A stretch of DNA of 35,426 bases from Candidatus Anderseniibacteriota bacterium. GTDB taxonomy: Bacteria; Patescibacteriota; Andersenbacteria; UBA10190. The position numbers and the translations under genes were made by a program. Below are positions 4,973-35,426 of this stretch, piece after piece. A model generated the notes under the pieces. The model worked only from the letters and a program-made list of their open reading frames with translations, was not told the origin of the DNA and ran no database searches. The stretch spans positions 540,544-575,969 of the forward strand of contig JACPWO010000001.1 of the NCBI GenBank assembly GCA_016197005.1. The letters are read 5' to 3'. How positions within the stretch are numbered: position 1 is the stretch's first letter; every line of letters begins with the position of its first letter.

Positions 4973-4989
4973 AGGGAGAGGTAAAGGGT

Positions 4990-6546
4990 TTAGGCGTATC
5001 GGAAGAGTTTGCGAAAACGAATGTATTCGGTCAAACGAAGTCCGGTCCAGCGACCCAACAGAATATTTAATGGAATAGCCAGTAGAACTACTTCAGGATA
5101 CGAGACAATAATGGTGCGCATAAGTTGCCAGCTGACAATGTAATAGCAAGCAACTGAGAGAGCGAGAGTCCAGGCGGTAATAGTGAAAGCTTGGCGAGCA
5201 CCTGACTTAAATTGCACCGCAATAAATTCTTCAGCTAGCAGCGTAAGAATAAGGATAGGAAAAATAGAGAAAGAGAGGAGAGTTGTTTGCTCGGTTACAA
5301 TACCGATTCCAAAGAGTGCCAATATAGCCAAGCTGACAGTCGTTAAAACAAGGGCCATGCGTGGTAGATATAAGAGTTGCAATCGTTTCATTAGGAGGCG
5401 AGTAAGAGTGCCCGCAGCCAATATAACCGAGAACACAATAAGTCCATATTCCAAACCAAGAACCAAAAAGCTAAGCGTAGTCATTGCTGGTGTAATGAGT
5501 CCAAAGGCTTTAATGCCAATGACCTGCCGGGCAAAGGATAAGATAGTGGCAATAACGGGGAGCATTAAGATAAGCGTAATGTTGTTAATAGGCACGCCTC
5601 GGTTTACTAAGAAATCCACGGAGAATGACATGAAGTTGGTAATACCAAGATCTCGAACAGTGCGAGCGCTGAATGTTCCCAGGAGGCGGTGAGCAATTTG
5701 TGAGCTAACAATTGCTTGGTGAGCTTCTTCGGCCACCATCGGCTCCAGGAGGAGATCCAGAGTTTGCGGTCGGGTAATAATAACGTAGCTGGGACGGAGG
5801 CGGTCAAACACGGATTGAGCAGCTGGGGCTAAGACGCCAAAGGGAGTATCGGATAAAAGAATAATACCCTTGTCGGATACGCCGAGGTCGCCACTAGATA
5901 ACTCTTGAGACTGTTCAATCCGCTGGCTAAATTTAGAAAAGGCACTCGCTCCCACACTACCAGCGGTCCAACTAAATAAGAGATCGGCACGGCTAATAGC
6001 ATCACGGGCATCGAGCAGTTGATTGGTAAGTTCCTCTTCAATAATTGCTTCCGGGCCGCTACTCTGAGCGCGTAGTTCTACTAAAAGTATTCCGTTTTCG
6101 GCCGCTTGTTGTTGTTTGACTCGCACGGTATCGGGGGAGGCGCTGTCGTCCGTAGTTAAGATAACAACGTGCTCGAATACGACAATTTCAGTGGTGTCTT
6201 CAAGGGATCCTCGGTTGGTTGTGAGGCGAACGTTTACTTTGTATGATCCGGGTTTTTGGTAGGCGTGAGAGACTTTTTCTCCTGTTGTTCGAATGCCATC
6301 ACCAAAGTCCCATAGCACCTCAGTAATTTCTAAGTTTTCAGGAATAGAAGAGCCTGATAGATCAAATGTGAGACGTCGTCCCGTAAAGGTGTGACGGCTG
6401 CTTCCAGTAGTAATACCAATGACCGGCTCTTCAGATTGCTGTTCATCCTTATTTTCCGAAGAAGTATCTTCTTGAGCGTGGGCAAAGCCTGGCAGCACTA
6501 CTGCGGCGATTAAGAGTGCAAAAAGGGATTTTCTTATGCGATACAT
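4990..6546 (-). CDS. Signal peptide + PKD domain + unknown ectodomain + C-terminal 7-TM module (7TM_transglut-like) membrane protein
   Basis: 518 aa with signal peptide 'LLIAAVVLPGFAHAQE'. The PKD signature is 'VLWDFGDGIRTTGEKVSHAYQKPGSYKVNVRLT'. Seven hydrophobic helices occupy the last ~210 aa, ending in 'LLGRWTGLRLTEYIRFR'. The stop lies 17 nt upstream of the ATP-grasp gene start. Confidence 0.6.
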   Translation of the reverse strand: MYRIRKSLFALLIAAVVLPGFAHAQEDTSSENKDEQQSEEPVIGITTGSSRHTFTGRRLTFDLSGSSIPENLEITEVLWDFGDGIRTTGEKVSHAYQKPGSYKVNVRLTTNRGSLEDTTEIVVFEHVVILTTDDSASPDTVRVKQQQAAENGILLVELRAQSSGPEAIIEEELTNQLLDARDAISRADLLFSWTAGSVGASAFSKFSQRIEQSQELSSGDLGVSDKGIILLSDTPFGVLAPAAQSVFDRLRPSYVIITRPQTLDLLLEPMVAEEAHQAIVSSQIAHRLLGTFSARTVRDLGITNFMSFSVDFLVNRGVPINNITLILMLPVIATILSFARQVIGIKAFGLITPAMTTLSFLVLGLEYGLIVFSVILAAGTLTRLLMKRLQLLYLPRMALVLTTVSLAILALFGIGIVTEQTTLLSFSIFPILILTLLAEEFIAVQFKSGARQAFTITAWTLALSVACYYIVSWQLMRTIIVSYPEVVLLAIPLNILLGRWTGLRLTEYIRFRKLFRYA

Positions 6547-9609: not shown

Positions 9610-10190
9610 CGGCGCCATATCGCGTACATCCCTGCTAGTACGAGCATTCCCATAGGAATAGCCGACGCGCCCATAATGAGTCCAGCTGTTTTGCCGCTGA
9701 GGGCGTAGTCGAGCGTGAGAAAGAAGTAGACAAAGAAGCGAGGACGGACGGTAAACGTATAAGGAAATCCACGGGCATCTCGGATGAGAGATACAAATAC
9801 AAGAGAGGCGTAGGTAGCAAAGAAAATGAGAATGAGAGAATACGGCTCATGGGCGAAAAGGAAAGCGTACAGACAGGCGCTCGCAATCCCCACCATATCA
9901 GCAGCCGTATCAACGAGGACGCCAGTGGGGCCAGTCTTTTGCCAGCGCGCTAGGGCGCCATCAATACCATCAAGTAAGACGTGCACCCATAAACCAATAA
10001 GGAAGATGGTTGGCTCGTGAAGTAGAAGGGCACCAAGAAGACCACTGGCGGCTACGAGACCAGAGAGGAAACTAATGTGGTTAGCCGTTATCTTCCAGGC
10101 CGCAAGGGTGCGAACTAGTGGCAAGAAGAACCTATCTTTATATCGTTGGAAGCTTTTCATCGCTCCCCGTTCAGCTACAGCGTAAAGCAT
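9591..10190 (-). CDS. CDP-alcohol phosphatidyltransferase family protein
   Basis: 199 aa polytopic membrane protein with the family motif 'LDGIDGALARWQKTGPTGVLVDTAADMV' (D-G-x2-A-R...G-x3-D-x3-D). An alternative ATG start lies at 10160. The 3' end overlaps ruvB convergently by 19 nt. Confidence 0.75.
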   Translation of the reverse strand: MLYAVAERGAMKSFQRYKDRFFLPLVRTLAAWKITANHISFLSGLVAASGLLGALLLHEPTIFLIGLWVHVLLDGIDGALARWQKTGPTGVLVDTAADMVGIASACLYAFLFAHEPYSLILIFFATYASLVFVSLIRDARGFPYTFTVRPRFFVYFFLTLDYALSGKTAGLIMGASAIPMGMLVLAGMYAIWRRQSRAR

Positions 10191-10196
10191 AAAAAA

Positions 10197-11924
10197 ATGA
10201 TACCATTACTTGTAATGAGGAAGCTGCAAGCAAGTGCTTTCTTGGCTCTACTGGGGAGTGGTATTACTGTCGCTTATGCTGCAGAAAATGGTGTTCGAAT
10301 CAGCGAAGTAATGTGGGATGGCACGGAATATGTTGAGTTGTACAACGGAGGAGACGAGGAAGTTAGGCTGGAAGGTTGGAAACTTAGTCGACAGAAAGCG
10401 GGGACAGACGAACAAACTATTATTACCTTTACTGATGATCACCGAATTGATGCCGGTGATTACTTTCTTATTGAAAAAAACCAAGATGCCACTTCGATTG
10501 AAGCTGATGCTATAGCTAGCAGTCTTACCCTTGTAAATACTGGTGAGGCAGTGCGCCTGTATGATGATAAAAACAACACTCGGGATAGCGCTGGTGGAGA
10601 AGGCGCTTGGCTAGCTGGCAAGAATACGGATACAGGTGTTTCCATGGAGCGGACAGCTGACGGGTGGCAAAGTTCAAGTGGAGCAGGCGGTGGACGGAGC
10701 GGGACGCCGCGAGCAGCTAATAGTTCAGGGCAGGCAGAGAGCTCAACTACTCCAGTGCCACAATCGTACGACACACCGCTTCTCATTAATGAGTTTCTAC
10801 CGAATCCTAGTGGGGAAGACGCTGCTAGTGAGTTTATCGAACTGTATAATCCGAGTGATGGATCAGTTGATTTGTCGGGCTGGCAAATTGACGACGCATC
10901 CGGCGGTAGTACACCTTATCGTATCCCCGACAATACATCAGTGGCTTCTCATTCCTACATTGTATTTAAAAGTACTGACACGAAGATTGCTCTTAATAAT
11001 ACTAATGACAGTGTGCGCTTACTGGATCCTACAGGAGGCGTGCAAGAGGAGACGAGTTATACAGGGGGTCCAGAAAATCAGTCATATAATCGCGATACAG
11101 CGGGCTCATACAAACTCAGTACTACCATAACGAGTGGCAATACTAATGTTATTACCCAGCCCGCTCCTTCTCCCGCGGCTACACCAAAGGCTACTTCCAC
11201 CCCAACGGTTAAGCCTTCACCTATCAAGACAGCCAGTCCTACCTCTTCTGTTACGGGAATAGCGAACGCTACTATTGTCATCTGGCGTCTCCTGCCGGAT
11301 CCGGTAGAAAAAGATGAGGAGGGGGAATATATCGAGGTAAAAAACAAGGAGAGTAAAAGTGTAACGCTCACTGGTTGGAAGCTCGATGATGAAGAGGGTG
11401 GCAGTACCCCTTATGAAATTCCCGAAGAAACAACTATTGCTGCCGGACAGATAATTTCCTTTCCCCGCGAGGAAACAAATATTGCCTTAAACAACACAGG
11501 AGATACGGTTCGACTTTTAAATCCAGCTGGTGTCGTCGTTGATCAGATAACGTACGGAAAAGTGGGCGCTGGTGAGATTGTCAGTGTGGAGAGTGGTAGT
11601 GTAGCTGGCGCCACAACAACCGCATCGACAACATCTGCACCGGTGTCGTCAGACTCACCTACTGTAAGTACAATAGCAAAGGAAGGAGAATCATCAGAAG
11701 GCGTGGAAGTTGTCGAAGGAATTCCACAAACACAAGTAGCTTTAGCTGGAGCTTCACATTTAGGACAAACAGCATTAGTTGAGGAGACGTCCTCTAATAA
11801 AAAAAGCCAGCGTGACGGTATTGTAGCTGGTGTCCTCTTAATCGGCGGAGCAGGAGCAGCTGCTGTTGCCTATGCTAAACCAGGCACATTGGCGAAGTTA
11901 AAATCTTTTGTTAGTAACGCGTAA
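10197..11924 (+). CDS. Surface protein with three lamin-tail-domain (LTD) repeats, P/T/S-rich linkers and a C-terminal TM anchor
   Basis: Three copies occur of the pattern 'I(N/S)E..(P/W)......E(Y/F)IEL(Y/K)N......L.GW.L.D..' followed by 'N..D.VRLL(D/N)P.G'. The signal peptide is 'MIPLLVMRKLQASAFLALLGSGITVAYA'. I prefer the ATG at 10197 to the track start at 10146. The C-terminal hydrophobic helix is 'GIVAGVLLIGGAGAAAVAYA'. Confidence 0.7.
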   Translation: MIPLLVMRKLQASAFLALLGSGITVAYAAENGVRISEVMWDGTEYVELYNGGDEEVRLEGWKLSRQKAGTDEQTIITFTDDHRIDAGDYFLIEKNQDATSIEADAIASSLTLVNTGEAVRLYDDKNNTRDSAGGEGAWLAGKNTDTGVSMERTADGWQSSSGAGGGRSGTPRAANSSGQAESSTTPVPQSYDTPLLINEFLPNPSGEDAASEFIELYNPSDGSVDLSGWQIDDASGGSTPYRIPDNTSVASHSYIVFKSTDTKIALNNTNDSVRLLDPTGGVQEETSYTGGPENQSYNRDTAGSYKLSTTITSGNTNVITQPAPSPAATPKATSTPTVKPSPIKTASPTSSVTGIANATIVIWRLLPDPVEKDEEGEYIEVKNKESKSVTLTGWKLDDEEGGSTPYEIPEETTIAAGQIISFPREETNIALNNTGDTVRLLNPAGVVVDQITYGKVGAGEIVSVESGSVAGATTTASTTSAPVSSDSPTVSTIAKEGESSEGVEVVEGIPQTQVALAGASHLGQTALVEETSSNKKSQRDGIVAGVLLIGGAGAAAVAYAKPGTLAKLKSFVSNA

Positions 11925-12997: not shown

Positions 12998-13098
12998 AGA
13001 AAACAGACAGTATTTCACTCACGCTTGATAGAGTGGCTACGAGGTAAAGAAACAGGTAAACCTATTACTCTCTCCATGTTACGAGTTACAATGGATTG

Positions 13099-14799
13099 AT
13101 GGTGTCTCTTGATCCTGTTTTAAGTGAAGCTGAACGCAAGAAAGAGCTTGCGAGCAAACTCAAACTCATGTCTTCCGATCAGGAAGAACATATTGCAGAA
13201 GTACGTGCCCAAGAAGCTGGGTTGCCCTACATTAGTTTGGTCACATTTCCGATTGATTCGGATGTTTTAGAATTGGTTTCTAAGACACGAGCGCGCGAAA
13301 CTGACGCAGTACTATTTTATCATCAGGGTAAAGATGTTCGAGTAGGGGCAGTGGAGCCACGTTCAGAAAAAGTACAGGAATTAATGAAGGATCTTATTAA
13401 GAAATTTGGGGCTGCTCCGGTCCTGTACCTTATTTCTCGCCGTAGTTTAGCAGCCTGTTTAGCACGGTATCGTCGTGAAGCTCCTCAAGAGGCAGTGCTC
13501 GAAGGTGAACTTTCGGTAAACGCTAACGAAGTGACCTTGGCCGGAGAGGCAGTTAAAAATTTAGAAGAGTTAGGTGCTCGTATCACCAGTCTACCGCCGT
13601 CGCAAATTCTACAAGCGGTTGTGGTGAACGCTACGATTATGGGGGCATCAGATATTCATATTGAGCCGAAAGAAAAAAATGCTCGTCTCCGTTTTCGCGT
13701 TGACGGTGTATTGCAAGACATTACCAATTTTGCCCGTGACGGGTGGTCACTTTTGCTATCCCGCATCAAAGTACTTTCTCGTCTTAAGCTAAATGTTCAC
13801 GAAACTCCTCAAGATGGCAGTTTTGTCCTTAGATTGCCGCTGGGAACTGCCGGGGAGGAAAATATATATGATATTCGTGTCTCTATTTTGCCGGGTGGGT
13901 GGGGTGAGACAATTGTTATGCGTCTTTTAAGTCGAAAGATGGAAGCGGTTTCTATTACCGATCTGGGAATGAAAGAACGTGATTTTCAGTTAGTCCAAGC
14001 AGAACTCAAGCGAGCTAATGGCATGATCTTAGTTACCGGACCGACGGGTTCTGGAAAGACGACTACGCTGGCTTCATTTATTAAAGCGGTAAATACTCCG
14101 GAACTTAAGATTATTACCCTGGAAGATCCAATTGAGTATCGTCTGCCGGGGGTTCAACAAACGCAAATTGATCATGCGGCTGGGTATACGTTTGCGAAAG
14201 GTCTACGCTCCATTCTTCGTCAAGATCCGGACATGATCCTGCTGGGTGAGATGCGGGATGAAGAAACAGCTGAGACGGCTGTTCATGCCGCCCTAACTGG
14301 TCACTTGGTATTTTCTACCTTACATACAAACAATGCAGCTGGTGCGATCCCACGTCTGGTAAATATGGGAGCAAAGCCATATGTTTTAGCTCCGGCTCTT
14401 AATCTTATTATTGCTCAGCGCCTTGTTCGCAAAGTATGTCCAAAATGTGCTGAGGAATACAAACCGGATGCGGCTATTAAAGAGCGCATAGCGGAAGTCA
14501 TGGCGGGTGTACGTACCGATGTCTTTGACCCAAGTCGTCTGAAAAATAAAAAACTGACAATCCTAAAAGCAGTTGGTTGCAAAGCCTGTGTAAATGGATA
14601 TAAGGGACGAGTAGGTGCCTTCGAAATTTTTGCTGTCGACAACAACATAAAAGAATTAATGATTGAAGGTGCTAATGAATTTCGGGTACAAGAAGCAGCT
14701 CTCAAGCAAGGCATGACAACTATTACCCAAGACGGATTTATTAAAGTGTTGGATCACGTTACGTCACTTGAGGAGATCGAGCGTATCGCCGAAGAGTAG
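13099..14799 (+). CDS. Type IV pilus / type II secretion assembly ATPase (PilB/GspE family)
   Basis: Walker A 'VTGPTGSGKTTTL', 'ITLEDPIEY', Walker B 'ILLGEMRDEETA', His box 'GHLVFSTLHTNNA' and a tetracysteine 'CPKCAEEY...CKACVNGYKGR'. The ATG at 13099 is one codon inside the TTG-opened ORF. Confidence 0.85.
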   Translation: MVSLDPVLSEAERKKELASKLKLMSSDQEEHIAEVRAQEAGLPYISLVTFPIDSDVLELVSKTRARETDAVLFYHQGKDVRVGAVEPRSEKVQELMKDLIKKFGAAPVLYLISRRSLAACLARYRREAPQEAVLEGELSVNANEVTLAGEAVKNLEELGARITSLPPSQILQAVVVNATIMGASDIHIEPKEKNARLRFRVDGVLQDITNFARDGWSLLLSRIKVLSRLKLNVHETPQDGSFVLRLPLGTAGEENIYDIRVSILPGGWGETIVMRLLSRKMEAVSITDLGMKERDFQLVQAELKRANGMILVTGPTGSGKTTTLASFIKAVNTPELKIITLEDPIEYRLPGVQQTQIDHAAGYTFAKGLRSILRQDPDMILLGEMRDEETAETAVHAALTGHLVFSTLHTNNAAGAIPRLVNMGAKPYVLAPALNLIIAQRLVRKVCPKCAEEYKPDAAIKERIAEVMAGVRTDVFDPSRLKNKKLTILKAVGCKACVNGYKGRVGAFEIFAVDNNIKELMIEGANEFRVQEAALKQGMTTITQDGFIKVLDHVTSLEEIERIAEE

Positions 14800-24080: not shown

Positions 24081-25154
24081 ATGAATTTAGTTGAATTCGA
24101 AGGAAAAGAATTATTCAAAAAGTATGGCATCCCAGTGCCGAAAGGAATTGTTGTAAAATCTTCGGTTGAAAAAGTCTCGTTTCCCTCTCCGGCAGTAGTA
24201 AAAAGTCAGGTTCCTGTAGGGGATAGGGGTCGTAAAGGCGGTATTCTAATTGCTAAAAACACGAAGGAAATTTCATCAGCAGTCACTAAAATTTGGCAAA
24301 CTTCCATCGGTGGGTACGTGCCTGAGAGTCTCTTAATAGAGGAACTTGTAAGTAGTATCGCTGAGCGATACGTAAGTATCTCCTACGATAGTGGTATGCG
24401 CCAACCGGTACTGGCCATTAACAAGCAAGGTGGCTCGGGAACCGCGCGGGCTTCCCTCACCTACATTGATCCCCTGGAAGGCCTACAGTCATATCTTCTT
24501 CGGCAAGCACTTTTTGCCTCTGGGCTTAAGCCATCTCGAGCGCTGGCAGATATTATTAAATCTTTGTGGAATCTATTTCAGTCTGAGCACGCAATTTTAG
24601 CTGAGATGAATCCACTGTTTGAGTTAGCAGATGGTAGTTTTGTTGCTGGGGACGCCAAAGTTATTTTAGACGACAACGCGGTACGACCTGAGTACCGACC
24701 ATACGTTCAGATGAGCGGAGATATTGCGGTGCTTGCCTCGGGTGGAGGTGCTTCCATGATCAATTTAGATGCACTTATGCGAGCAGGTGGACGACCGGCT
24801 AATTACGTTGAGTACTCCGGTAACCCAAAATCGGAAGTAGTACGGACGCTTACGAAAAAAGTTCTATCACAAAGAGGGCTAAAAGGTTGTTGGGTTGTTG
24901 GGGGCACTGCCAACTTTACTGATATTTATGAAACCTTACTTGGGTTTACCGAAGGCCTTTTGTCGGTAAAACCCAAGCCAAAGTACCCGATTGTTATTCG
25001 TCGTGATGGACCCCGACAAAAAGAGGCGTTTGTGATGCTGAAGCAATTTAGTGAGCAGCACGATTTTGATATTCATCTCTTTGGTCCAGAAATTCCGATG
25101 TCAGAATCCGCTAAAGTCATGGTGAAGTTGGCTTATAAGAGAAAGAAGAAATAA
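24081..25154 (+). CDS. SucC-like ATP-grasp subunit (succinyl-CoA synthetase beta / citryl-CoA synthetase / ACL-beta family)
   Basis: 357 aa. 'MNLVEFEGKELFKKYGIPVP' parallels SucC 'MNLHEYQAKQLF..YG.P.P'. Other blocks are 'VVKSQVPVGDRGRKGGI', 'AEMNPL' and 'ANYVEYSGNP'. Confidence 0.75.
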   Translation: MNLVEFEGKELFKKYGIPVPKGIVVKSSVEKVSFPSPAVVKSQVPVGDRGRKGGILIAKNTKEISSAVTKIWQTSIGGYVPESLLIEELVSSIAERYVSISYDSGMRQPVLAINKQGGSGTARASLTYIDPLEGLQSYLLRQALFASGLKPSRALADIIKSLWNLFQSEHAILAEMNPLFELADGSFVAGDAKVILDDNAVRPEYRPYVQMSGDIAVLASGGGASMINLDALMRAGGRPANYVEYSGNPKSEVVRTLTKKVLSQRGLKGCWVVGGTANFTDIYETLLGFTEGLLSVKPKPKYPIVIRRDGPRQKEAFVMLKQFSEQHDFDIHLFGPEIPMSESAKVMVKLAYKRKKK

Positions 25155-25155
25155 T

Positions 25156-26055
25156 ATGGCAATTTTAGTAGACCATAAGACCAACGTTCTTGTTCAGGGG
25201 ATTACCGGCACAGAAGGCTCTCGGGCGGTTAAAGAAATGCTGTTGTATGGCACCACCGTAGTGGCTGGAGTGACCCCGGGTAAGGGCGGACAGAAAGTAG
25301 AAAAAGTACCAGTTTATAACTCGATCAAAGAAGCTCTCAAAAAACATCCAGAAATTAATACAACGCTTGTTGCCGTGCCGCCAATGTTTGTAAAGGATGC
25401 CATTCTCGAAGCAGTTGCCAGTCGCATTCCGCTCATAAACGTACTGACCGAGAAGGTACCGGTAGCCGATATTGCTTACTGTTTCGCTGCGGCACAACGT
25501 ATGGGCGTCCGAATCGTTGGGCCGAGCTCCGTTGGTATTATTTCTCCTGGGAAAGCGAAGGTTGGAGCTATCGGTGCTGCTGAATTGGTAGATCGCGTGT
25601 TTAAAGCAGGTGTGGTTGGAGTTATCTCGAAAAGCGGTGGTATGACTGCTGAAATTTCTCGTATTTTAACGGAAGCAGGCTTAGGACAAAGTACCGCTGT
25701 TGGTATCGGGGGCGAGGTATTGCTCGGTTCAGATTTTGTTGATTTGGCTCGTCTTTTTGAAGCAGATAGACAGACGAAGGTAATTGTTATCTTTGGCGAA
25801 GTAGGTGGACCATATGAGGAACTTTTGGCGGAGGCTATGACTGCTGGTGAAATTACAAAGCCGGTTGTTGCTCTTATTGCTGGTGGGTTCTCAACAAAGC
25901 TCCCTTCTGGCACTGTTTTGGGGCATGCGGGTGCCATTGTTAGTGCGGGGAAGGGGTCGGCTGAGTCTAAGATACGGGCACTTACAAAGGCCGGCGCGCG
26001 CATCGCCAAATCTCCAGAAGATATCCCGAAATTGGTCAAGAAAATGTTAGGATAA
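25156..26055 (+). CDS. SucD-like CoA-binding subunit with phosphohistidine loop
   Basis: 299 aa with 'VLVQGITGTEGS', 'VAGVTPGKGGQ', 'VGPSSVGIISPG', 'SKSGGMT' and 'VLGHAGAIVSAGKGSAESK'. Confidence 0.85.
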   Translation: MAILVDHKTNVLVQGITGTEGSRAVKEMLLYGTTVVAGVTPGKGGQKVEKVPVYNSIKEALKKHPEINTTLVAVPPMFVKDAILEAVASRIPLINVLTEKVPVADIAYCFAAAQRMGVRIVGPSSVGIISPGKAKVGAIGAAELVDRVFKAGVVGVISKSGGMTAEISRILTEAGLGQSTAVGIGGEVLLGSDFVDLARLFEADRQTKVIVIFGEVGGPYEELLAEAMTAGEITKPVVALIAGGFSTKLPSGTVLGHAGAIVSAGKGSAESKIRALTKAGARIAKSPEDIPKLVKKMLG

Positions 26056-26059
26056 GAAC

Positions 26060-26755
26060 ATGTTAGACATTGAGACTGCAATCAGCGAGAACAAAGACGG
26101 CCATCATTACATTCATGGTCACGACGTACTGGAGCTCATCGAAAAGAAGTCATTCACCGATATGTTGTTTTTGCTGTGGCGAGGAAATGAGGCTAATGCA
26201 AAAGAAAAAGAATTATTAGAGGCGATGCTCGTAGCATGCGTCGAACATGGAGTGGAAGCTCCCTCTTTATTTGTACCCAGAGTAGTTGCTTCAACAGGTA
26301 ATGACATGAATGCTTCTTTGGCAGCCAGTGCACTTACGGTCAACAAAAAACACGGGGGAGCAATTGAAGCAGCAGCTAGTATGCTGGCTGAAGATAAGAT
26401 AGCGGAAGATAGTGTAAAAGAACGACTTGAATCCAAGAAGATTATTCCTGGTCTTGGTCATAAGATATATAAAGATGAAGATCCGCGGGCCACTGTTCTG
26501 GGAAAGAAAGCAGAGGGATTGGGTTTCCAGGGCGGCTACTTTAAAAAGATGTATGCCATTGAAGCGGCCTTTGAATCTATGAAAGGGAAGCGTTTGCCTG
26601 TGAACATAGATGGTGCTCTGGCTGCTGGTATGCTTGAGCTCAAACTAAATCCTGTGTATGGCATGGCGCTGTTTATTATCCCTCGCCTGGTCGGAGCTGC
26701 AGCACACATTGTTGAAGAGCAAAAATCTGGTGGAAGTTACCGAAGGTTAAAGTGA
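26060..26755 (+). CDS. Short citrate-synthase-fold protein, citryl-CoA lyase-like (equivalent to the ACL C-terminal module)
   Basis: 231 aa with 'ACVEHGVEAPSLFVPRVVASTGNDMNASLAASALTVNKKHGGA', 'IIPGLGHKIYKDEDPRA' and 'PVNIDGAL'. These correspond to the citrate synthase His/His/Asp catalytic motif contexts. It lacks the large N-terminal part of true citrate synthases. Confidence 0.65.
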   Translation: MLDIETAISENKDGHHYIHGHDVLELIEKKSFTDMLFLLWRGNEANAKEKELLEAMLVACVEHGVEAPSLFVPRVVASTGNDMNASLAASALTVNKKHGGAIEAAASMLAEDKIAEDSVKERLESKKIIPGLGHKIYKDEDPRATVLGKKAEGLGFQGGYFKKMYAIEAAFESMKGKRLPVNIDGALAAGMLELKLNPVYGMALFIIPRLVGAAAHIVEEQKSGGSYRRLK

Positions 26756-27528: not shown

Positions 27529-27975
27529 ATGCCGGATATCGTCATGGTTGCTAAGCCGTCCGAGTATGTGTCTAAAGAGAGCACGTATAAAACTTTATGG
27601 CTTACAGCTGCAGATTTTTGGCAAAATGAGGCGCTCGTCCGCACTCATGACGAGGTGTTGTGGCAGGCCTTTCGTACTCACGGTAAATACCAGCACGCAG
27701 TCCAGAAAGCGGATTGGTTTGCAGTGGCGGTAGACGAAGCTGGGCAATATGTATCTTCGGCCTTTGTTATTACGGTCAGCGATGTTTGGATCATTGAATA
27801 CGTTATGACCAACCCTACCTTTGAAGGTAAAGGTGCTGGCTCAGCAGTTATGGGTCGGATTATGACGGAGGCAAAAAAAGCAGGCTCTACGTGGGCAGTA
27901 CTGAATTGTGATCCAGAATTTCGTGAAGGTCAGCTACCTAAGTTCTATAGTAAGTTCGGCTTTAAACAATCGTAA
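27529..27975 (+). CDS. GNAT-family N-acetyltransferase
   Basis: 148 aa with the acetyl-CoA binding motif context 'VMTNPTFEGKGAGSAVMGRIMTEAKKAG' and the C-terminal 'FYSKFGF'. Confidence 0.75.
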   Translation: MPDIVMVAKPSEYVSKESTYKTLWLTAADFWQNEALVRTHDEVLWQAFRTHGKYQHAVQKADWFAVAVDEAGQYVSSAFVITVSDVWIIEYVMTNPTFEGKGAGSAVMGRIMTEAKKAGSTWAVLNCDPEFREGQLPKFYSKFGFKQS

Positions 27976-28274
27976 TGCTAGCTGTTCGTGTGTTAAGTCC
28001 GCAGAATGTCTCCTGGAAAGGAGAAGCTCAGGCGGTGACTGCTATAAATAAGCTCGGGCCGTTTAGTATTCTTCTGGATCACGCTAACTTTATAACCACT
28101 ATCAAAGATACGGTTACGATTATACCGGCCTCTGGAGCTAGCTATTCTTTTGAGGTCGGTCTCGGTGTCTTATTTTGTCGTAATAACCAAGTAGAAATCT
28201 TTATTCAGTTGCCAATTGACGCTCAGGAACAGCGGGCTTGGTGGCAGAGTTTGCGATCTTCGAAGGAGAACTAG
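27975..28274 (+). CDS. atpC: F-type ATPase epsilon subunit, N-terminal beta-sandwich only
   Basis: 99 aa. 'LAVRVLSPQNVSWKGEAQAVTAINKLGPFSILLDHANFITTIKDTVTII...VGLGVLFCRNNQVEIFI' follows the epsilon pattern (L.V.I.TP....G....V.....G.FGIL..H.P..T.L..G.V......V.GG...V..N.V.I.). The start overlaps the GNAT stop (TAATG). Confidence 0.6.
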   Translation: MLAVRVLSPQNVSWKGEAQAVTAINKLGPFSILLDHANFITTIKDTVTIIPASGASYSFEVGLGVLFCRNNQVEIFIQLPIDAQEQRAWWQSLRSSKEN

Positions 28275-29679
28275 GCTTTTTCGCGCTATCGATAATCTTG
28301 GTGGTGGTAGCATCGTCGATATACCGGAGGCGCTCAGGATCAACTGAATCGAGTTTACCGCCTACAATGTCATTAATGATCTCAACTGTTCGTTTGCGTG
28401 GCACTGATACATCAGGATGTCCGGTTTCTGCTGCCGAGAGGTACATATCTTGAGTCATGTAGTTCGTAATGAGCTTGGCGCGTCGAAATATCTTTTGGTT
28501 ATCTGAAGCCAGTTCATTTTCTCCTACTAATGAAGCAATACGTTCGAGTTCGGCAGACAATTCGAGGATTTGCTTCGCTTGGATATACGCCAAGTAATGT
28601 TTATTACCCACAATACTTGGCGTAAGGGCCGCTGAATTGGAAGCTAGAAGGTCAATTGCGGGGTAGCGACCGGACTGAAATATGTCGCGAGACAAAATAA
28701 TAGTGGTGTCGAGGAAGGGGAAAGCGGCTCGTACCCCTGCATCGGTAAAGTCGTCACCGGGGACAAACAGAGCCATAAAGGAAGACACGGATGCGTGCTT
28801 GGTGGAGTGTAGCCGCTCGTTCAAAGAAGCCATTTCACTGGTGAGTGTTGCTTGATAGCCGTCTTCAGAGGGGATGGTATTGGTAATAGTGGCGAGCTCG
28901 TGTCCGGCCTGGGCAAAACGGTACAGGTTGTCCATGTAATACAACACGTCTGTTTTCTCTTCATCGCGGAAGTACTCGGCAATAACCGCCCCGGCATAAG
29001 CCGTACGAAACCGGACAGCGGGATTTTCTCCCATCTGTCCTAAAATGAGGGTTGTTTTAGGTAGAACGCCACTTTCTTTTAGATCATTGTATAGTTCCTG
29101 TGCTTCACGTGAGCGTTCACCTACGGCGCTAAAGACGGCCACGCCAGCTCGTTGTTTCTTATCTTGCGGGCGTATTACCAACCGCTGGGCCAGCTGCGTT
29201 AAGACAACCGTTTTACCTACTCCCGCTCCTCCGATTAAGGCTGCCTTACCGCCATGGAGAAGCGGTGTAAAGAAATCGATCGCTTTAATACCGGTCTCCA
29301 TAATATCCTTTGGAGCAACAATAGTATTGAGGTTGCGATGAGGGGTGGTGTGCAGTGGTCGGCGGGGCTCGGCCGGTAGTGGTCCGGCGCCATCGTGAGG
29401 GGTGGAGAAGATATCGAAGGCTCGACCTAAGACGGCTGATCCGACTGGGACCATGAGGGGCTGCCCGGTTAGCTGCACTACTTGCCCTCGTGACAGACGC
29501 TTGCCAGACTTAAGAACAAGACAGTAGACACTGCGGGGGGTAGCAGAAGCTATTACTTCCATCTGAGCGGGATATTCTCCGCCAGTTGTTAAGACGTCAC
29601 CACGCTTGGGAGCGCCCGTAGAAAAACTAACTTCCGCAATACTGCCAGTGATGGCTAAAATGTGTCCTTCGGCATTCAT
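28201..29679 (-). CDS. atpD: F1 ATPase beta subunit (divergent, with a C-terminal tail)
   Basis: 'GGAGVGKTVVLTQL', 'VFSAVGERSREAQELY', 'LGQMGENPAVR', 'MDNLYRFAQAGHE', 'EDGYQATL', 'VPGDDFTD' and 'GRYPAIDLLAS'. I prefer the ATG at 29679, which is ATGA-coupled to the atpG stop, over the TTG at 29691. Confidence 0.85.
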   Translation of the reverse strand: MNAEGHILAITGSIAEVSFSTGAPKRGDVLTTGGEYPAQMEVIASATPRSVYCLVLKSGKRLSRGQVVQLTGQPLMVPVGSAVLGRAFDIFSTPHDGAGPLPAEPRRPLHTTPHRNLNTIVAPKDIMETGIKAIDFFTPLLHGGKAALIGGAGVGKTVVLTQLAQRLVIRPQDKKQRAGVAVFSAVGERSREAQELYNDLKESGVLPKTTLILGQMGENPAVRFRTAYAGAVIAEYFRDEEKTDVLYYMDNLYRFAQAGHELATITNTIPSEDGYQATLTSEMASLNERLHSTKHASVSSFMALFVPGDDFTDAGVRAAFPFLDTTIILSRDIFQSGRYPAIDLLASNSAALTPSIVGNKHYLAYIQAKQILELSAELERIASLVGENELASDNQKIFRRAKLITNYMTQDMYLSAAETGHPDVSVPRKRTVEIINDIVGGKLDSVDPERLRYIDDATTTKIIDSAKKPSSPSKIANSATKPAVPERQLATE

Positions 29680-30509
29680 CGCTTTGACCAAAGCCTAAGA
29701 CCCGAGAGACGTTCTCGTTGTTGTTTGTTACGCATTTGGCGAGTGCTTTCCCGAGAAATACGTTTTAACTTGTACTGGCGGGAACGAATGGCATTATCTG
29801 CTAGTTCCATAGCCGTTATTTGTGATCCTAATTCAGCCAGGGTGTTTTCGTCCGCTGCTTGCTTAAAGAGAAGCGCAACTAAGTTACGATCAAACAATGA
29901 CACAATTGTTTCCAGAGAAGGTTCAAAGACAAATTGCTCGCTTGAGGCGGTGGATTTTTTCTTTGCTAGCACATCGCCAATCGTAACATGTGTTGGACGC
30001 TGACTTACAAGGTTGGCGTACTGACCAAATACAAAAGTAATGCTTTTATACCGAAGGAGCGTTTGAACAAGAGGAGCGAGTGCTTGCTCGTCCTTCTGCC
30101 AGCCTTTAGGTAATTCAATGTAGTTAAAGTCCGCACCTGGTAATTCAGAGATAAAGCGCTGCTTTCCTACCGAACCAATCACAATGGGATCACTGGGATG
30201 AAGTTCCAGGTACTCGATAAAGTAGCGAAAGGTAGCAGAGGTAATAGGGCCGGTAAGATACTGTTCAGCTGAGAAGAGGACGACTGCGTTGCCACGACGA
30301 GATTTCTCCAGCGTTGTTACCTCGCCCTGATACGCATCTCGGACTTGTCCGAAAACAGAAGAGAGGCGTTCAAAGAATTGGCGGGAAGCGAGCACATTTT
30401 TTTGTGGTTCTTGAATACGGGACACCGCAATCTCTTGTTTCGCCGTGACCATCGGAGCCAACTCTTCCAGGAGTTTAAGCTCTACCTGGATACTGTCGCT
30501 GTTTGGCAT
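29676..30509 (-). CDS. atpG: F1 ATPase gamma subunit (divergent)
   Basis: 277 aa located between alpha and beta. The C-terminal block 'FVFEPSLETIVSLFDRNLVALLFKQAADENTLAELGSQITAMELADNAI' matches the gamma pattern FEP....+....L.......+..A..ES.ASE..AR..AM..A..NA. Confidence 0.75.
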   Translation of the reverse strand: MPNSDSIQVELKLLEELAPMVTAKQEIAVSRIQEPQKNVLASRQFFERLSSVFGQVRDAYQGEVTTLEKSRRGNAVVLFSAEQYLTGPITSATFRYFIEYLELHPSDPIVIGSVGKQRFISELPGADFNYIELPKGWQKDEQALAPLVQTLLRYKSITFVFGQYANLVSQRPTHVTIGDVLAKKKSTASSEQFVFEPSLETIVSLFDRNLVALLFKQAADENTLAELGSQITAMELADNAIRSRQYKLKRISRESTRQMRNKQQRERLSGLRLWSKR

Positions 30510-31966
30510 AGTTCTTCAATGTGAGGACGATTTTCTCCAATTTGTTGTACGAGATGCTCAAGTTTCGATAGTTTTACCATGTCGTCAAAAAGACGTTTTG
30601 CTTCTGGGTCGCTGCTGTATTGCTGGACGAGGTGATCTCGCCAGTGCGCGGGGGTATCCTCTGGCTGTTCATTAAGCCAACCACGCCAAATCATAGTAGT
30701 TAGGACGAGTTGAACAGGAAGAGGCACCGTCAGGAAGGCTGGTTGGGAAAAGAATTGCATGAGACGTTTGCCAGTGGCGAGAATAGTTTTTACTTCCTCG
30801 GTCATTTCACTACCGAACTTCGTAAATTGCTGAGCATCTCGGTATTTTGCCAGGAAAGCCATTAGTTCAATGTTTAGTTGTTTCGCTGCTGGAAGCTGGA
30901 CTTTTAGCCCCACGCGCGTAACCGACGCAGCTACGTCTACGGCCGGCCGCTGGCCGGCAGCAAATCGCACCGAGTCAAAGTGAAGATGGCCGTCAGTGAT
31001 ACTAATAAGATTAGACACAATGTATCCCGAGACGCTGTTTTGAACGGTCTCACCTACGACGAGACAAGTAATAGAAGCCTCTTTCTTTTCGGGATGTATA
31101 AAGTTACCACCTCGTTCGAGAAGACGAGCATGGGCGTGAAATATATCTCCAGGGTAGGACTCACGACCGGGGAAGCGTCCAGAGAGAAGGGCGACTTCAC
31201 GATAGTAGCGAGCATGGGTTGAGAGGTCGTGGAGAATGAGTAGGACATCTTCCCCAGCGTCACGCCAATATTCTGCCACCGTCATAGCTGCGTATGGAGT
31301 AAGGATAATGAGACTAGGAATATCCTCGGCGCTGCTGGCAACAACAATAACGTTTTTCGTATTCGTTTCTTCGTTCACAAAGTCAGCAATACGTCGTATC
31401 TCACTGAGTGGCCGACCAATGGCGGCAAACACGACAATTCCTCGATTAGCATGCGCTTTGGCAGCAGCTAAAACGAATGAGGTCTTCCCGGTTTTTAGGT
31501 CACCAATGACGGCTTCACGTTGGCCGGCTGCCAGTGGAACAAGGAGGTCAACGACCGAAGTACCCGTGACAAACTGACGCTTAATGGGTTTACGTTTTTC
31601 AATTGGTAATGGATGAATATCAATGAGGCGCTGCTCGGTCTCGCCCTGAATTTTTATACCGGGCAGTAGCGGCTCGCCGAGCGGATTAAGTATTTGTCCT
31701 CGCTGTCCTTTACCGACTGGAATGTGAAGACGCTGACCAGTTCGAGTGAGACGAGTGCCGGGTTGAATGGGTTCACCACTTAAGAGAGCAATATGGACTA
31801 CGTCTGGTTGCAAGTCCGAAACGTACCCAATCTGTCCATCCTCAAATATAACGATCTCGTCAGTCGTAGCCTCAGGCAGACCACTCGCAAAAATAAGAGG
31901 GAAGCGAACTTGCTCTACAGTCCCGTACTCTTTTGTTTTTTCTAAATATTCTTTAAACCTGTTCAT
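30482..31966 (-). CDS. atpA: F1 ATPase alpha subunit (divergent)
   Basis: 'GQREAVIGDLKTGKTSF', 'VFAAIGRPLSEI', 'AEYWRDAGEDVLLILHDLSTHARYYREVALLSGRFPGRESYPGDIFHAHARLLERG', 'ISITDGHLHFDS' and 'GQRPAVDVAASVTRVG'. Confidence 0.85.
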   Translation of the reverse strand: MNRFKEYLEKTKEYGTVEQVRFPLIFASGLPEATTDEIVIFEDGQIGYVSDLQPDVVHIALLSGEPIQPGTRLTRTGQRLHIPVGKGQRGQILNPLGEPLLPGIKIQGETEQRLIDIHPLPIEKRKPIKRQFVTGTSVVDLLVPLAAGQREAVIGDLKTGKTSFVLAAAKAHANRGIVVFAAIGRPLSEIRRIADFVNEETNTKNVIVVASSAEDIPSLIILTPYAAMTVAEYWRDAGEDVLLILHDLSTHARYYREVALLSGRFPGRESYPGDIFHAHARLLERGGNFIHPEKKEASITCLVVGETVQNSVSGYIVSNLISITDGHLHFDSVRFAAGQRPAVDVAASVTRVGLKVQLPAAKQLNIELMAFLAKYRDAQQFTKFGSEMTEEVKTILATGKRLMQFFSQPAFLTVPLPVQLVLTTMIWRGWLNEQPEDTPAHWRDHLVQQYSSDPEAKRLFDDMVKLSKLEHLVQQIGENRPHIEELCQTATVSR

Positions 31967-32387
31967 ATCTTTGTAGAGCCTTTACTAGAGAAAAATCATA
32001 TATTCTTCCTCCTACACTTATTACTACGCCTCCGACGATACTCGGATTGGTAGCAATGGTAAGTTCAGCTGGTTTCGGTATGAGTTCAGCCAACCACGTT
32101 TGCAGGTGATTAGTGAGATTTGGCGATGGTCGAATCGCTATGGTTATTTCTACTTCCTGACGCCCTTCTAAATCTTGTCTTAGGGCAGTGATTGCCTTTG
32201 TCGGATCGAGGTCTTTGAAGGAAGGGGGGAGAGAAGTATGGACAAAGGTGGGAAGAAGTTCGGAAAAGTTGATAGAAGAACTGCGCAGGTGGTGCAGTCG
32301 CTGATTGATACTATCGAGATGACTGCGAAGTTCATCAGCTTCTTCGCGCAAGATAACGGGCGGTAAAAGTGGCTCGTCTTTTTTCAT
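31953..32387 (-). CDS. atpH: F-type ATPase delta/OSCP subunit, short form (only the C-terminal domain is recognisable)
   Basis: 144 aa. 'EVEITIAIRPSPNLTNHLQTWLAELIPKPAELTIATNPSIVGGVVISVGGRIYDFSLVKALQRY' parallels the E. coli delta C-terminal domain. The N-terminal ~75 aa do not resemble the usual helical bundle. Confidence 0.7.
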   Translation of the reverse strand: MKKDEPLLPPVILREEADELRSHLDSINQRLHHLRSSSINFSELLPTFVHTSLPPSFKDLDPTKAITALRQDLEGRQEVEITIAIRPSPNLTNHLQTWLAELIPKPAELTIATNPSIVGGVVISVGGRIYDFSLVKALQRYEQV

Positions 32388-32388
32388 A

Positions 32389-32976
32389 TTAGTTCCATTG
32401 AATATCGGAAGTTGCTTTTTTGAGGGCCTCCTGGATAATTTTTTCTTGATCAGGTACTGAAATAGCCTTTCCTACTACCTCGTTCAAAATCTCCGGGAGT
32501 CTTTCAGAGAGACGTTGGCGAATTTTTTCTTGCTCTTCGTGAGCTACTTGGCGCAAGGATTTTTTCATTTCTTCTCCATACGCAAGTGCTTGTTGGGAAA
32601 GTTCAGCGCGAGTCTGGGTGAGGAGACTAGCCGTGTGAGCGGAGAGTTGTTTAAAATGTTCCTCTGAGTGAGCTTTAAGAGAGACAGAGAGACTCTCTAA
32701 GATCTCCTTTTGGTGTTCAATAATGGTATCCAGTACGTGTCGAGATTCTGTGCCGACAGATTCAGCTGCGCTCAGAAGACGACCGCGAATTGCGGCTTGG
32801 GTCTCTTTTGAGAATATTTCTGTCTGCTCAAGAATTTGTTCTGCCTGTCGGCCAGCCAGTTCTAATACTTTTTGGCTTTCACGCATTATTTCGCTTAATT
32901 CAGCAGCAGAAGCATCTAGCTTTCGCTGTAATTTATGGTTATTTAATGTGCCGATTTTTTCATCAAATAAAGCCAT
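32389..32976 (-). CDS. Coiled-coil protein at the b-subunit (peripheral stalk) position, without a TM helix
   Basis: 195 aa, almost entirely charged or helical (E/Q/K/R/L/A rich). It lies immediately upstream of atpH. The C-terminal 'EILNEVVGKAISVPDQEKIIQEAL' is reminiscent of the b C-terminus. The N-terminus 'MALFDEKIGTLNNHKLQ' is not hydrophobic. Confidence 0.45.
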   Translation of the reverse strand: MALFDEKIGTLNNHKLQRKLDASAAELSEIMRESQKVLELAGRQAEQILEQTEIFSKETQAAIRGRLLSAAESVGTESRHVLDTIIEHQKEILESLSVSLKAHSEEHFKQLSAHTASLLTQTRAELSQQALAYGEEMKKSLRQVAHEEQEKIRQRLSERLPEILNEVVGKAISVPDQEKIIQEALKKATSDIQWN

Positions 32977-32982
32977 AGCGTA

Positions 32983-33756
32983 TTAGAAAACAAGAATGAG
33001 ATAGCCGAGTACCAAACCGACAATAACGAGCGCAATAGTAATGGCGGTATGAAAACCAACGAGCACATAAATTGAACGCTTAGCTAAAGGATTTCTGCCA
33101 AGAGCTGCGACTGTAGAAGAGCTCGTTCGGCTATACATCCAGTACCCCGCGATGAGGGAAGCGAGAATAATGAGGGTCGAAACGATGTATCGAAGGGGGC
33201 GCGGTAGGGCTGTTAACGTTTCGCCGGGATTAGCCAGGATAGATCCGAGAGCAAACCCTGATCCTTCTGGCCAGACAAACCCTGGATTAATGGCTGCTGG
33301 AACCAAGGCAGTTTCATTTGCGGAAACATGGGAGGGCCCTAGAGCCCGCCCAATTACGAATCCAGGGTCGGCGGCTGCTTGCCCTACTCCTGCAGTTTGT
33401 GAACTCGTGATATACATACCAGCCTCAATTGGTCCTTGGACTAAAACTTCCGCGCTGCCTGATCCAACCAGTGGAATGGTACCTGCTGAACCTACATAAC
33501 TTATGGCAACACTCGGATTAATAGATGCGATTCCTGCTAAATTTTCGTCGTAGGGAATAGTAGCGAGTCGATATTGACCAGCGATGAAACTAATAAGTTG
33601 TCCCTGTTTAATATCGTTAGCGTTTTCTATAGGAACATACTCAGCAATGCCGCGAGACAACTCTTGAGCAAAAGCCACGGACGGCAATATAAGACTACCT
33701 ATTACAAGGAAAGAAACCCTCCAGTTCATGAGACTCATTATATAGAGTATTTTCAC
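32983..33756 (-). CDS. Secreted/membrane protein at the c-subunit position: signal peptide + ~180 aa ectodomain + C-terminal c-subunit-like TM hairpin lacking the carboxylate
   Basis: The signal peptide is 'NWRVSFLVIGSLILPSVAFA/QE'. The C-terminal 'RYIVSTLIILASLIAGYWMYSRTSSSTVAALGRNPLAKRSIYVLVGFHTAITIALVIVGLVLGYLILVF' has two TM helices joined by a basic 'GRNP' loop. The start is uncertain (GTG 33756, ATG 33738 or ATG 33729). Confidence 0.35.
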   Translation of the reverse strand: MKILYIMSLMNWRVSFLVIGSLILPSVAFAQELSRGIAEYVPIENANDIKQGQLISFIAGQYRLATIPYDENLAGIASINPSVAISYVGSAGTIPLVGSGSAEVLVQGPIEAGMYITSSQTAGVGQAAADPGFVIGRALGPSHVSANETALVPAAINPGFVWPEGSGFALGSILANPGETLTALPRPLRYIVSTLIILASLIAGYWMYSRTSSSTVAALGRNPLAKRSIYVLVGFHTAITIALVIVGLVLGYLILVF

Positions 33757-34308
33757 CTTTGCGTATCAAGGAAAGGTAGAAGAGATAAGATCCGGCGTAG
33801 AGGCAATATAACGCCTTGTTTATATTCAGTATACATACAATTAAGTTACTAATAATTAATATTTTGATAAATTATAATGCCCATATAACTACCATTTGCA
33901 CACCTTTTAACAACTCCTGCCTAATTTTCTGATACTCTTCCTGTGTCTGGTGAAATTAAATTTTCCTACTATTTTTTAGTCGATTTCACTGAAATAGGTG
34001 AGGTTGTCTGCTCTTTGAGGTCCATTATTGATCCTACAAAAGTTTTAAAAGATCTTCAGATGATCGGTCGTATGACTTTTTATCTCCAAGCAGTGAGGCA
34101 CAAGTGAGCTAGAAACCCAGGGTGAGCCTCTAACAGCTCAGTTACTAGTAAAGTGAGTAAACGGGGGGGCTTCTCTCATATTTATATTGAGGTGCCGAAA
34201 TTTAATAAGGTAATTTTTATCTAAAAGGTGGACGTATAGGCATTTTTATTGCTAGATCTATCCTCTCAAAGATCTTGCCTAAACTGTGCAAAAGTTTCCT
34301 GATATTGT

Positions 34309-34328: not shown

Positions 34329-34358
34329 ACCTAGGCATTGCCTAACCATTGCCTAGGT
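34329..34358 (+). promoter_or_regulatory. Operator-like inverted repeat ACCTAGGCA-N12-TGCCTAGGT, also containing the direct repeat CATTGCCTA x2
   Basis: Perfect 9 bp inverted arms lie at 34329-34337 and 34350-34358. The site sits between the -10 candidate and the start of the tandem-HTH gene. Confidence 0.45.
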
Positions 34359-34388: not shown

Positions 34389-35426
34389 GTGGTCCAAAAC
34401 AAAAGAGGGGCAACTGAACTCGTTCCAATTGCTGAGGCTGCAGCAATTCTTGGTGTGTCTGTGGATACGGTCCGTCGTTGGGAGCGGGGCGGAAAATTAA
34501 AAGCTCATCGTTCTCCTGGCGGTCATCGCCTCTTTTCTAAAACTGATTTAAACGCGTTTAAACAAGATCAAGGATTTTCTATATCAGAAGCGGCGGCTCG
34601 TCTTGAAGTTTCTACTAGTACTCTACGTCGCTGGGAACGAGAAGGAAAAGTTACGGCTGAAAGAAATGAGAAGGGCGAGCGAGTATTTACCCAACAGCAG
34701 CTTAATCTATTAGAAGATGGAGAAGCGGCGAGCTTTCCTTCATCATATCCTGTTCTTTCCTATGATAAGACAAATAATGATATATTAGTTCCTAAAGTCC
34801 AGTCACTTTCTAATCACAGTTCCGTAACCTTAGCACCCTCTCCTTCTAAGATTCGTGAAGATTTAGGTCTACCTAAAGAGAAGATCAGGTTTAAAGGTTT
34901 GGCATTTGGTTTAACTGTACTACTTCTGCTCTTGAGTGGGGTGACAACAGCGGGGGTGAAATACTTTGGAGTAAAAAATGGAGGAGGTAGAGAGGCTCGA
35001 AGTAATTCCAATACCCTTGCAGTCTTACCGGGTATTGGGGAAACCGAGCGAGCCCGTGGTCGAGTTCTGGCTTTAGTAACAGAAGACGAAGATAGATTCT
35101 TTCAGGTAAATATTCCTGCATTTTTTGAAAGCGGTCTGAACACGACAGAAATTTTTACGGAACGGCTGCGAGCAATTCCGGGACTGACAGTTATTGATGC
35201 TCAAGGGACGAGTATCGATTTTGGTACTGGTACCATCGAAGCATCAAATTTAGTCTATAGTCTCCAAGGTCAACGCGGTGACGTAACCCTCACAGCCGGA
35301 GAAGGCATTGTGATAGACGGCACCACAATTAGCGCTACTGATTCGGACGTATCTCTTACTAATGCCGGAGACATAACGATCACTGAAACAAGCGATGGGA
35401 TATTTACACTGGCGCTCGAATCCACC
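34389..35426 (+). CDS. Membrane-anchored protein with two tandem MerR/excisionase-type HTH domains, one TM helix and an extracytoplasmic region (partial; runs off the window)
   Basis: This frame is open from 34335 to the window end and is not in the ORF track because it has no stop. HTH 1 is 'IAEAAAILGVSVDTVRRWERGGKLKAHRSPGGHRLFSKTDL'. HTH 2 is 'ISEAAARLEVSTSTLRRWEREGKVTAERNEKGERVF'. The TM helix is 'GLAFGLTVLLLLLSGVTTAGV'. There is no in-frame ATG near the start; the candidates are GTG 34389 and TTG 34338. Confidence 0.6.
   Translation, partial: MVQNKRGATELVPIAEAAAILGVSVDTVRRWERGGKLKAHRSPGGHRLFSKTDLNAFKQDQGFSISEAAARLEVSTSTLRRWEREGKVTAERNEKGERVFTQQQLNLLEDGEAASFPSSYPVLSYDKTNNDILVPKVQSLSNHSSVTLAPSPSKIREDLGLPKEKIRFKGLAFGLTVLLLLLSGVTTAGVKYFGVKNGGGREARSNSNTLAVLPGIGETERARGRVLALVTEDEDRFFQVNIPAFFESGLNTTEIFTERLRAIPGLTVIDAQGTSIDFGTGTIEASNLVYSLQGQRGDVTLTAGEGIVIDGTTISATDSDVSLTNAGDITITETSDGIFTLALEST

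Follow-up and report, generated by a model that had tools for sequence, protein, structure and literature searches.

What becomes of an F-type ATPase when the gene in the position of its rotor c subunit encodes a protein without the ion-binding carboxylate? This question is raised by an operon on contig JACPWO010000001.1 of a Candidatus Anderseniibacteriota bacterium (assembly GCA_016197005.1), of which a stretch of 35,426 nucleotides (hereafter the window) was analyzed. The initial annotation of the window had described a gene in the c-subunit position whose product joins an ectodomain to a c-like helical hairpin with isoleucine in place of the carboxylate. It had also stated that this interpretation would fail if the hairpin gave no significant profile match to ATP-synt_C, or if homologues commonly occurred away from atp genes. 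We confirmed the observation, and both tests came out in favor of the interpretation. The features of the locus are listed in the table.

Table. Features of the atp-like operon and its flank in the window (coordinates are those of the window)
Feature	Position	Strand	Length or residues	Remarks
c-like gene (c')	32983..33756	-	257 aa	GTG start; public gene call starts at Met10 (ATG at 33729), 248 aa
Signal peptide of c'	33667-33756		aa 1-30	
Ectodomain of c'	33202-33666		aa 31-185	
c-type hairpin of c'	32986-33201		aa 186-257	
GRNPLA loop of c'	33082-33099		aa 220-225	
Carboxylate position of c'	33034-33036		Ile241	
b-like coiled-coil peripheral-stalk protein	32389..32976	-	195 aa	No N-terminal TM helix in this genome
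delta/OSCP-like subunit	31953..32387	-	144 aa	Only the C-terminal part matches PF00213
alpha subunit	30482..31966	-	494 aa	GDLKTGKT P-loop, SVTRVG arginine finger
gamma subunit	29676..30509	-	277 aa	Divergent
beta subunit	28201..29691	-	496 aa	Walker A GGAGVGKT, GERSRE motif, C-terminal extension
epsilon subunit	27975..28274	+	99 aa	Beta-sandwich domain; inverted relative to the operon, overlaps the 3' end of beta by 74 nt
Inverted repeat just upstream of the giant gene	34329-34358			
Giant surface protein, 5' part	34389..35426	+	1646 aa in the full contig	Divergently transcribed; two MerR/HTH_17 domains, one TM helix near residue 200, then a large extracellular region

The c' reading frame is intact and is followed, at 6-nt and overlapping spacings, by five further genes. 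Apart from the inverted epsilon gene, this is the canonical bacterial order c-b-delta-alpha-gamma-beta-epsilon, with c' in the c slot and no gene in the a slot. The F1 subunits are recognizable and alpha and beta retain their catalytic motifs, but all score below the NCBIfam equivalog cut-offs: 378 bits for alpha against the 554 cut-off of its best model, 382 against 463 for beta, 57 against 194 for gamma, 28 against 57.5 for delta (TIGR01145) and 38 against 67 for epsilon. An Rfam scan of the window found nothing.

The residue numbering of the initial annotation proved to be exact. Counted from Arg221 in the G-R-N-P loop, His236, Thr237 and Thr240 are found at +15, +16 and +19, and Ile241 at +20 is followed by A-L-V-I-V-G-L-V-L-G at +21 to +30. 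Helix 1 has no GxGxGxG motif. An AlphaFold2 model built with a 36-sequence alignment (pLDDT 89.5) shows an N-terminal signal helix (3-23), an all-beta ectodomain (37-161), short helices (170-183) and a long helical hairpin (186-221 and 223-256, pLDDT about 95). The signal peptide (...SVAFA/QE) and the basic loop predict an N-out, loop-in, C-out topology, as in subunit c. In one respect the initial annotation has to be corrected, as it gave the extracellular domain about 180 aa; the mature ectodomain is about 155 aa, with a folded core of about 125 aa.

To determine whether the hairpin is related to c subunits or resembles them merely by composition, we compared it with known families at the level of sequence, profile and predicted structure. 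The single sequence gave only hints. Pfam and NCBIfam scans of c' alone yielded sub-threshold hits, with no PF00137 hit at E<=1, the NCBIfam c-subunit model NF005521 at E=0.025, and the PDB c-subunit chain 9itj_H at E=0.1, its Glu aligned to Ile241. A profile of the last ~75 residues of 35 relatives, searched against all PDB sequences, returned 17 hits, of which 15 were c subunits, the best having E=7.2e-5 and covering both helices. PF00137 was the most frequent Pfam hit among the relatives (9 of 35, best E=1.3e-4). Using hhalign against nine canonical c subunits, we obtained a probability of 91.5% and a score of 37.0 over 71 columns. As controls, the reversed alignment scored 12.5 and 40 column shuffles scored at most 12.2, all at a probability of 0.5% or less, and composition therefore does not explain the match. 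The predicted hairpin superposes on c subunits in Foldseek with TM-scores of 0.8-0.9 (normalized to the c subunit) and an rmsd of 1.1-1.6 A, with 30% identity to the Chloroflexus c subunit over 67 residues. The R-N-P loop is in exact register with the R-(Q/N)-P loop of c subunits, and in every alignment the column of the ion-binding Asp/Glu is occupied by the isoleucine.

The missing carboxylate is not peculiar to this genome. A homology search gave 36 relatives, annotated, where named, as Levybacteria, WWE3 or Patescibacteria, and an exhaustive profile search of 1.84 billion representatives found 936 representatives of 50%-identity clusters at E<=1e-30, which argues for strong purifying selection. 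The 150 best listed are full-length matches of about 230-325 aa. The family is large and confined to CPR bacteria. In 181 of 181 members examined, the R+20 position is I, L, V, A, F, G, T, S, M or C, and never D or E; the only acidic residues lie outside the membrane core, mostly at the cytoplasmic start of helix 2. GxGxGxG is found in 0 of 181. By contrast, R, N, P, L and A of the loop are invariant in the 36-sequence alignment, and the 181 members carry [GSA]RNP[LMF][AS], mostly GRNPLA. A polar pair is conserved in mid-membrane, with N in 152, H in 16, S in 7 and Q in 5 of 181 at +15, and T in 116 of 181 at +19. Public records call these proteins hypothetical, although one JGI record carries the automatic COG0636 c-subunit label.

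The genomic context was surveyed in eight individually fetched loci and in 80 species-representative loci obtained by scanning GTDB genomes with a 10-sequence sub-alignment. The genome loci are titled Woese-, Ames-, Levy- and Roizmanbacteria and Microgenomates; a few records carry evidently generic titles. Of 69 Microgenomatia/WWE3 loci with at least 7 kb downstream, 65-66 (about 95%) have alpha, gamma, beta and epsilon within 9 kb (alpha, gamma and beta always on the same strand; epsilon in 62 of 66). One more has them overlapping the gene call and one has them divergent. All ten individually inspected contexts agree with this linkage. The b-like protein has an N-terminal TM helix in 57 of 62 loci, but not in the window or in its closest relative (locus L007); the C-terminus of the window's b-like protein is nevertheless homologous to the TM-anchored b-like proteins of other loci.

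The same sequences were searched for subunit a, the second element needed for ion coupling. In 0 of 89 loci, including the whole window, did an ORF match E. coli or chloroplast subunit a as phmmer queries. None carries the a-type RLxxNxxAG motif, clustering of multi-TM ORFs revealed no conserved multi-TM family nearby, and the precomputed annotations of the inspected loci contain no PF00119 or PF00137. These searches were limited to neighborhoods of about 20 kb rather than whole genomes, and "missing" a subunits in other lineages have later proved to be merely divergent. However, in a WWE3 genome from a study reporting complete or essentially complete genomes, the ATP synthase operon described is of this odd type (Kantor et al. 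2013, PMC3812714). Within the neighborhoods examined, the enzyme of the Woese-, Ames-, Levy- and Roizmanbacteria and of WWE3 thus lacks both elements.

The ectodomain has no Pfam match. Its predicted fold resembles phage head decoration/cement proteins in PDB (E=3e-4) and, more strongly, predicted C-terminal domains of phage tail-fibre/preneck-appendage proteins (phi29 gp12-type) and DUF2190 proteins in BFVD (E=2.6e-11, rmsd about 2-2.7 A over 125-138 residues), although sequence identity is only 17-24%. An HMM of the ectodomain also hits a domain of about 110-130 residues in neighboring surface proteins in about 17 loci, mostly toward the C-terminus of giant ones (E 1e-12 to 1e-28). It does not hit the giant proteins of the window's own genome. 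Upstream and divergent from c', 49 of 62 loci encode a giant protein of up to more than 3,200 aa within the fetched flank, which begins with MerR/HTH_17 domains followed by a TM helix. The absence of subunit a, the extent of the family, the fold shared with adjacent giant surface proteins and the unanchored b-like protein of this genome were not seen in the initial annotation.

The c' protein is thus a diverged homologue of the F-type c subunit that has gained a secreted beta domain and lacks the membrane-embedded Asp/Glu that every characterized F-type c subunit uses to carry H+/Na+. What the complex does can only be inferred. We consider it most likely, with a probability of roughly 55%, that c' oligomerizes in the membrane, that its essentially invariant loop binds the gamma/epsilon foot as in a normal c-ring, and that the N-out topology places a crown of ectodomains on the cell surface. 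Without an ion site or an a-subunit channel, the enzyme probably cannot make ATP or pump ions in the usual way, and would work only as an ATP-hydrolyzing motor. The torque or conformational change of gamma/epsilon-c' relative to the stator (alpha3beta3-delta-b) would then be delivered across the membrane to the ectodomain crown. The likely targets are cell-surface partners, most plausibly the co-encoded giant surface proteins, several of which carry the same fibre-type domain. Only a monomer could be modeled, and two points make a canonical ring less certain: helix 1 lacks the Gly zipper that packs normal c-rings, and the ectodomain is attached to helix 1, which forms the inner ring in c-rings, so that it must splay out of the ring center. 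The initial annotation had likewise found an extracellular domain on each protomer hard to reconcile with a normal c-ring. In addition, the N-terminal MerR domains could mean that the giant proteins simply regulate the operon.

These same points are the basis of the strongest alternative, in which c' no longer forms a rotating ring but merely tethers an F1-type ATPase to the membrane or cell wall. The ATPase would then act by non-rotary conformational signaling or direct its output elsewhere in the cytoplasm, and the giant MerR-domain neighbor would be only a membrane-tethered regulator of the operon. In line with this, b and delta are absent from at least one operon (locus L008), b lacks a TM helix in the window lineage, MerR-type regulators are typically divergently transcribed from their targets, and an inverted repeat lies just upstream of the giant gene. 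We nevertheless regard a static anchor as unlikely, as the invariant RNP loop, the retained gamma and epsilon, and the peripheral stalk retained in most loci are hard to explain without rotor-stator mechanics, and the giant proteins comprise thousands of residues of extracellular sequence, far more than a regulator needs. More doubtful still is an enzyme that continues to translocate ions by means of the polar residues at +15 and +19 and a highly divergent or distantly encoded a-like subunit. The conservation of the polar pair is compatible with it, whole genomes were not scanned for subunit a, and reviews assume that CPR ATP synthases are functional or run in reverse (PMC11665869). However, no rotary ATPase appears to work without the c carboxylate, Asn cannot be protonated, none of the 89 neighborhoods holds an a-like gene or any conserved multi-TM partner, and Kantor et al. 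found no recognizable a subunit in the WWE3 genome they described.

Two further possibilities seem very unlikely. TM segments can match by composition alone, and the window protein has no Pfam hit above threshold, but a chance resemblance of an ordinary anchored surface protein is already largely refuted by the specificity of the profile hits for c subunits, an hhalign score three times that of any composition-matched control, the exact register of the loop and the carboxylate column, and the linkage to F1 genes. The losses of subunit a and of the carboxylate, together with the low scores of the F1 subunits, might also suggest a decaying relic in reduced genomes. Against this, all reading frames of the window operon are intact, the same gene order recurs in species-representative genomes of several lineages, the catalytic motifs checked are present, the loop is essentially invariant, and a domain has been gained, not only lost.

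In logic, the inferred motor resembles the Mycoplasma Type 2 (gliding G1) and Type 3 (MIB-MIP-associated) F1-like X0 ATPases (PMC3369863, PMC12994834, PMC11864180). The CPR and Mycoplasma systems both pair an F1-type alpha/beta/gamma/epsilon module with a non-canonical membrane sector and lack recognizable ion-translocating subunits. The Mycoplasma systems include a subunit with a signal peptide, a large N-terminal domain and two C-terminal TM helices (MSC_0620/MMCAP2_0577/MMOB1650), and their ATP hydrolysis is used, or proposed to be used, to power cell-surface machinery, including giant surface proteins in M. mobile. However, their seven-gene clusters contain a 12-TM protein and a small cytoplasmic protein and have no b, delta or c homologues, and they coexist with a canonical F1Fo. 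The CPR operon has no 12-TM gene and keeps the ancestral gene order, b, delta and a recognizable c hairpin. The NCBIfam MSC_0618/0619 and MMOB1660/1670 models score below their cut-offs and below the generic atpA/atpD models, and no sequence similarity of c' to the Mycoplasma proteins was detected. The operon also does not belong to the N-ATPases: the alt_F1F0 models reach 302 against a cut-off of 750 and 370 against 752, the gene order differs from atpDCQRBEFAG, and the a subunit included there was not found.

The operon itself has been noticed before. Kantor et al. remarked that the a, b and c genes of the WWE3 ATP synthase operon are unrecognizable and that a putative c subunit is shared with OP11, but left the function open. 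A WWE3 locus in our survey (L090) has the identical layout and shows that these genes are c', b-like and delta-like, with no a subunit. Three CPR genomics/metabolism papers do not mention ATP synthase at all, and we found no paper describing the hairpin homology, the missing carboxylate, the ectodomain or the giant-protein pairing. Such an operon could be a transitional form showing how Fo can be repurposed for mechanical output, and could make the origin of F1-like X0 motors testable. The conserved pairing with giant surface proteins suggests a candidate host-interaction machine in organisms for which little is known about how they interact with hosts.

A more far-reaching reading remains speculative. 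Microgenomatia/WWE3 bacteria may have converted their ancestral ATP synthase (not shown to be their only one) into a trans-membrane mechanical actuator, in which an ATP-driven F1 turns, or strains, a carboxylate-less c-derived ring. The extracellular crown of fibre-type domains would engage the co-encoded giant surface proteins, for example by docking to the homologous domain near their C-termini, and would power attachment, retraction or movement on host cells. This would be a CPR counterpart of the Mycoplasma gliding and MIB-MIP motors, evolved independently and directly from Fo, and would mean that these organisms have no F-type route to ATP synthesis or to a proton motive force. In the surveyed operons, a cofactor-independent phosphoglycerate mutase gene lies between c' and alpha in 35 loci.

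Divergently transcribed from the ATPase operon, we found a gene for a giant surface protein with two N-terminal MerR/HTH_17 domains and one TM helix, which continues beyond the window to a total length of 1646 aa in L089, the locus taken from the full contig. The same pairing occurs in 49 of 62 related loci, with ORFs of up to more than 3,200 aa within the fetched flank. The protein could be a membrane-tethered regulator, a mechanical partner of the ATPase, or both. In the 630-bp divergent intergenic region, an inverted repeat of the form ACCTAGGCATTG-N6-CATTGCCTAGGT lies about 30 nt upstream of the start codon of this gene, with a further TTGCCTAA copy nearby, and is a candidate operator. In related loci, the module of the c' ectodomain type recurs in other proteins beside the operon (E down to 1e-28), usually near the C-terminus of giant ORFs, a placement that resembles that of the C-terminal domains of phage tail fibres.

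Coordinates of additional features in the window and in related loci (L numbers designate individual loci)
Locus	Position	Strand	Feature
Window	34389-35426	+	Giant MerR/HTH_17 surface protein, continuing in L089 4401-9341
Window	34329-34358 (also 34275-34297)		Inverted repeat
Window	32389-32976	-	b-like stalk protein
Window	27975-28274	+	epsilon
Window	28201-29691	-	beta
Window	24081-26755	+	Three adjacent genes resembling a split ATP-citrate lyase or citryl-CoA synthetase/lyase
Window	3659-6546	-	ATP-grasp (ATPgrasp_ST) plus Zn-protease-like protein, next to a PKD + 7TM_transglut membrane protein
Window	10146-11924 and 13096-14799	+	Protein with three lamin-tail domains (PF00932) and PilB-type T2SSE ATPase
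L003	10775-12472		Cofactor-independent phosphoglycerate mutase
L005	11330-13003		Cofactor-independent phosphoglycerate mutase
L006	16306-17628	-	Protein with c' ectodomain-type module
L001	8186-9535	+	Protein with c' ectodomain-type module
L022	1745-9322 (module at residues 1971-2081)	-	Protein with c' ectodomain-type module
L008	6719-11437		Operon c'-alpha-gamma-beta

Elsewhere in the window, the three adjacent genes that together resemble a split ATP-citrate lyase or citryl-CoA synthetase/lyase carry ATP-grasp_2 + Citrate_bind, CoA_binding + Ligase_CoA, and the citrate-synthase C-terminal domain, which is unusual for a CPR genome. The ATP-grasp protein and the membrane protein next to it look like a peptide-modification/ATP-grasp gene pair. 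The lamin-tail protein and the T2SSE ATPase lie upstream in the window.

The b-like stalk protein of this genome, and of its relative L007, has no N-terminal TM helix, whereas 57 of 62 loci have one. The epsilon gene is inverted relative to the operon and overlaps the 3' end of beta, which carries a C-terminal extension, by 74 nt; in 62 of 66 related loci epsilon is co-directional with the operon. In 35 related operons, among them those of L003 and L005, though not in the window, the cofactor-independent phosphoglycerate mutase gene is embedded between c' and alpha, i.e. a glycolytic enzyme is encoded inside an F1-type motor operon. In one relative (L008) neither b nor delta lies between the genes of the operon, and the peripheral stalk genes are thus not always co-located.
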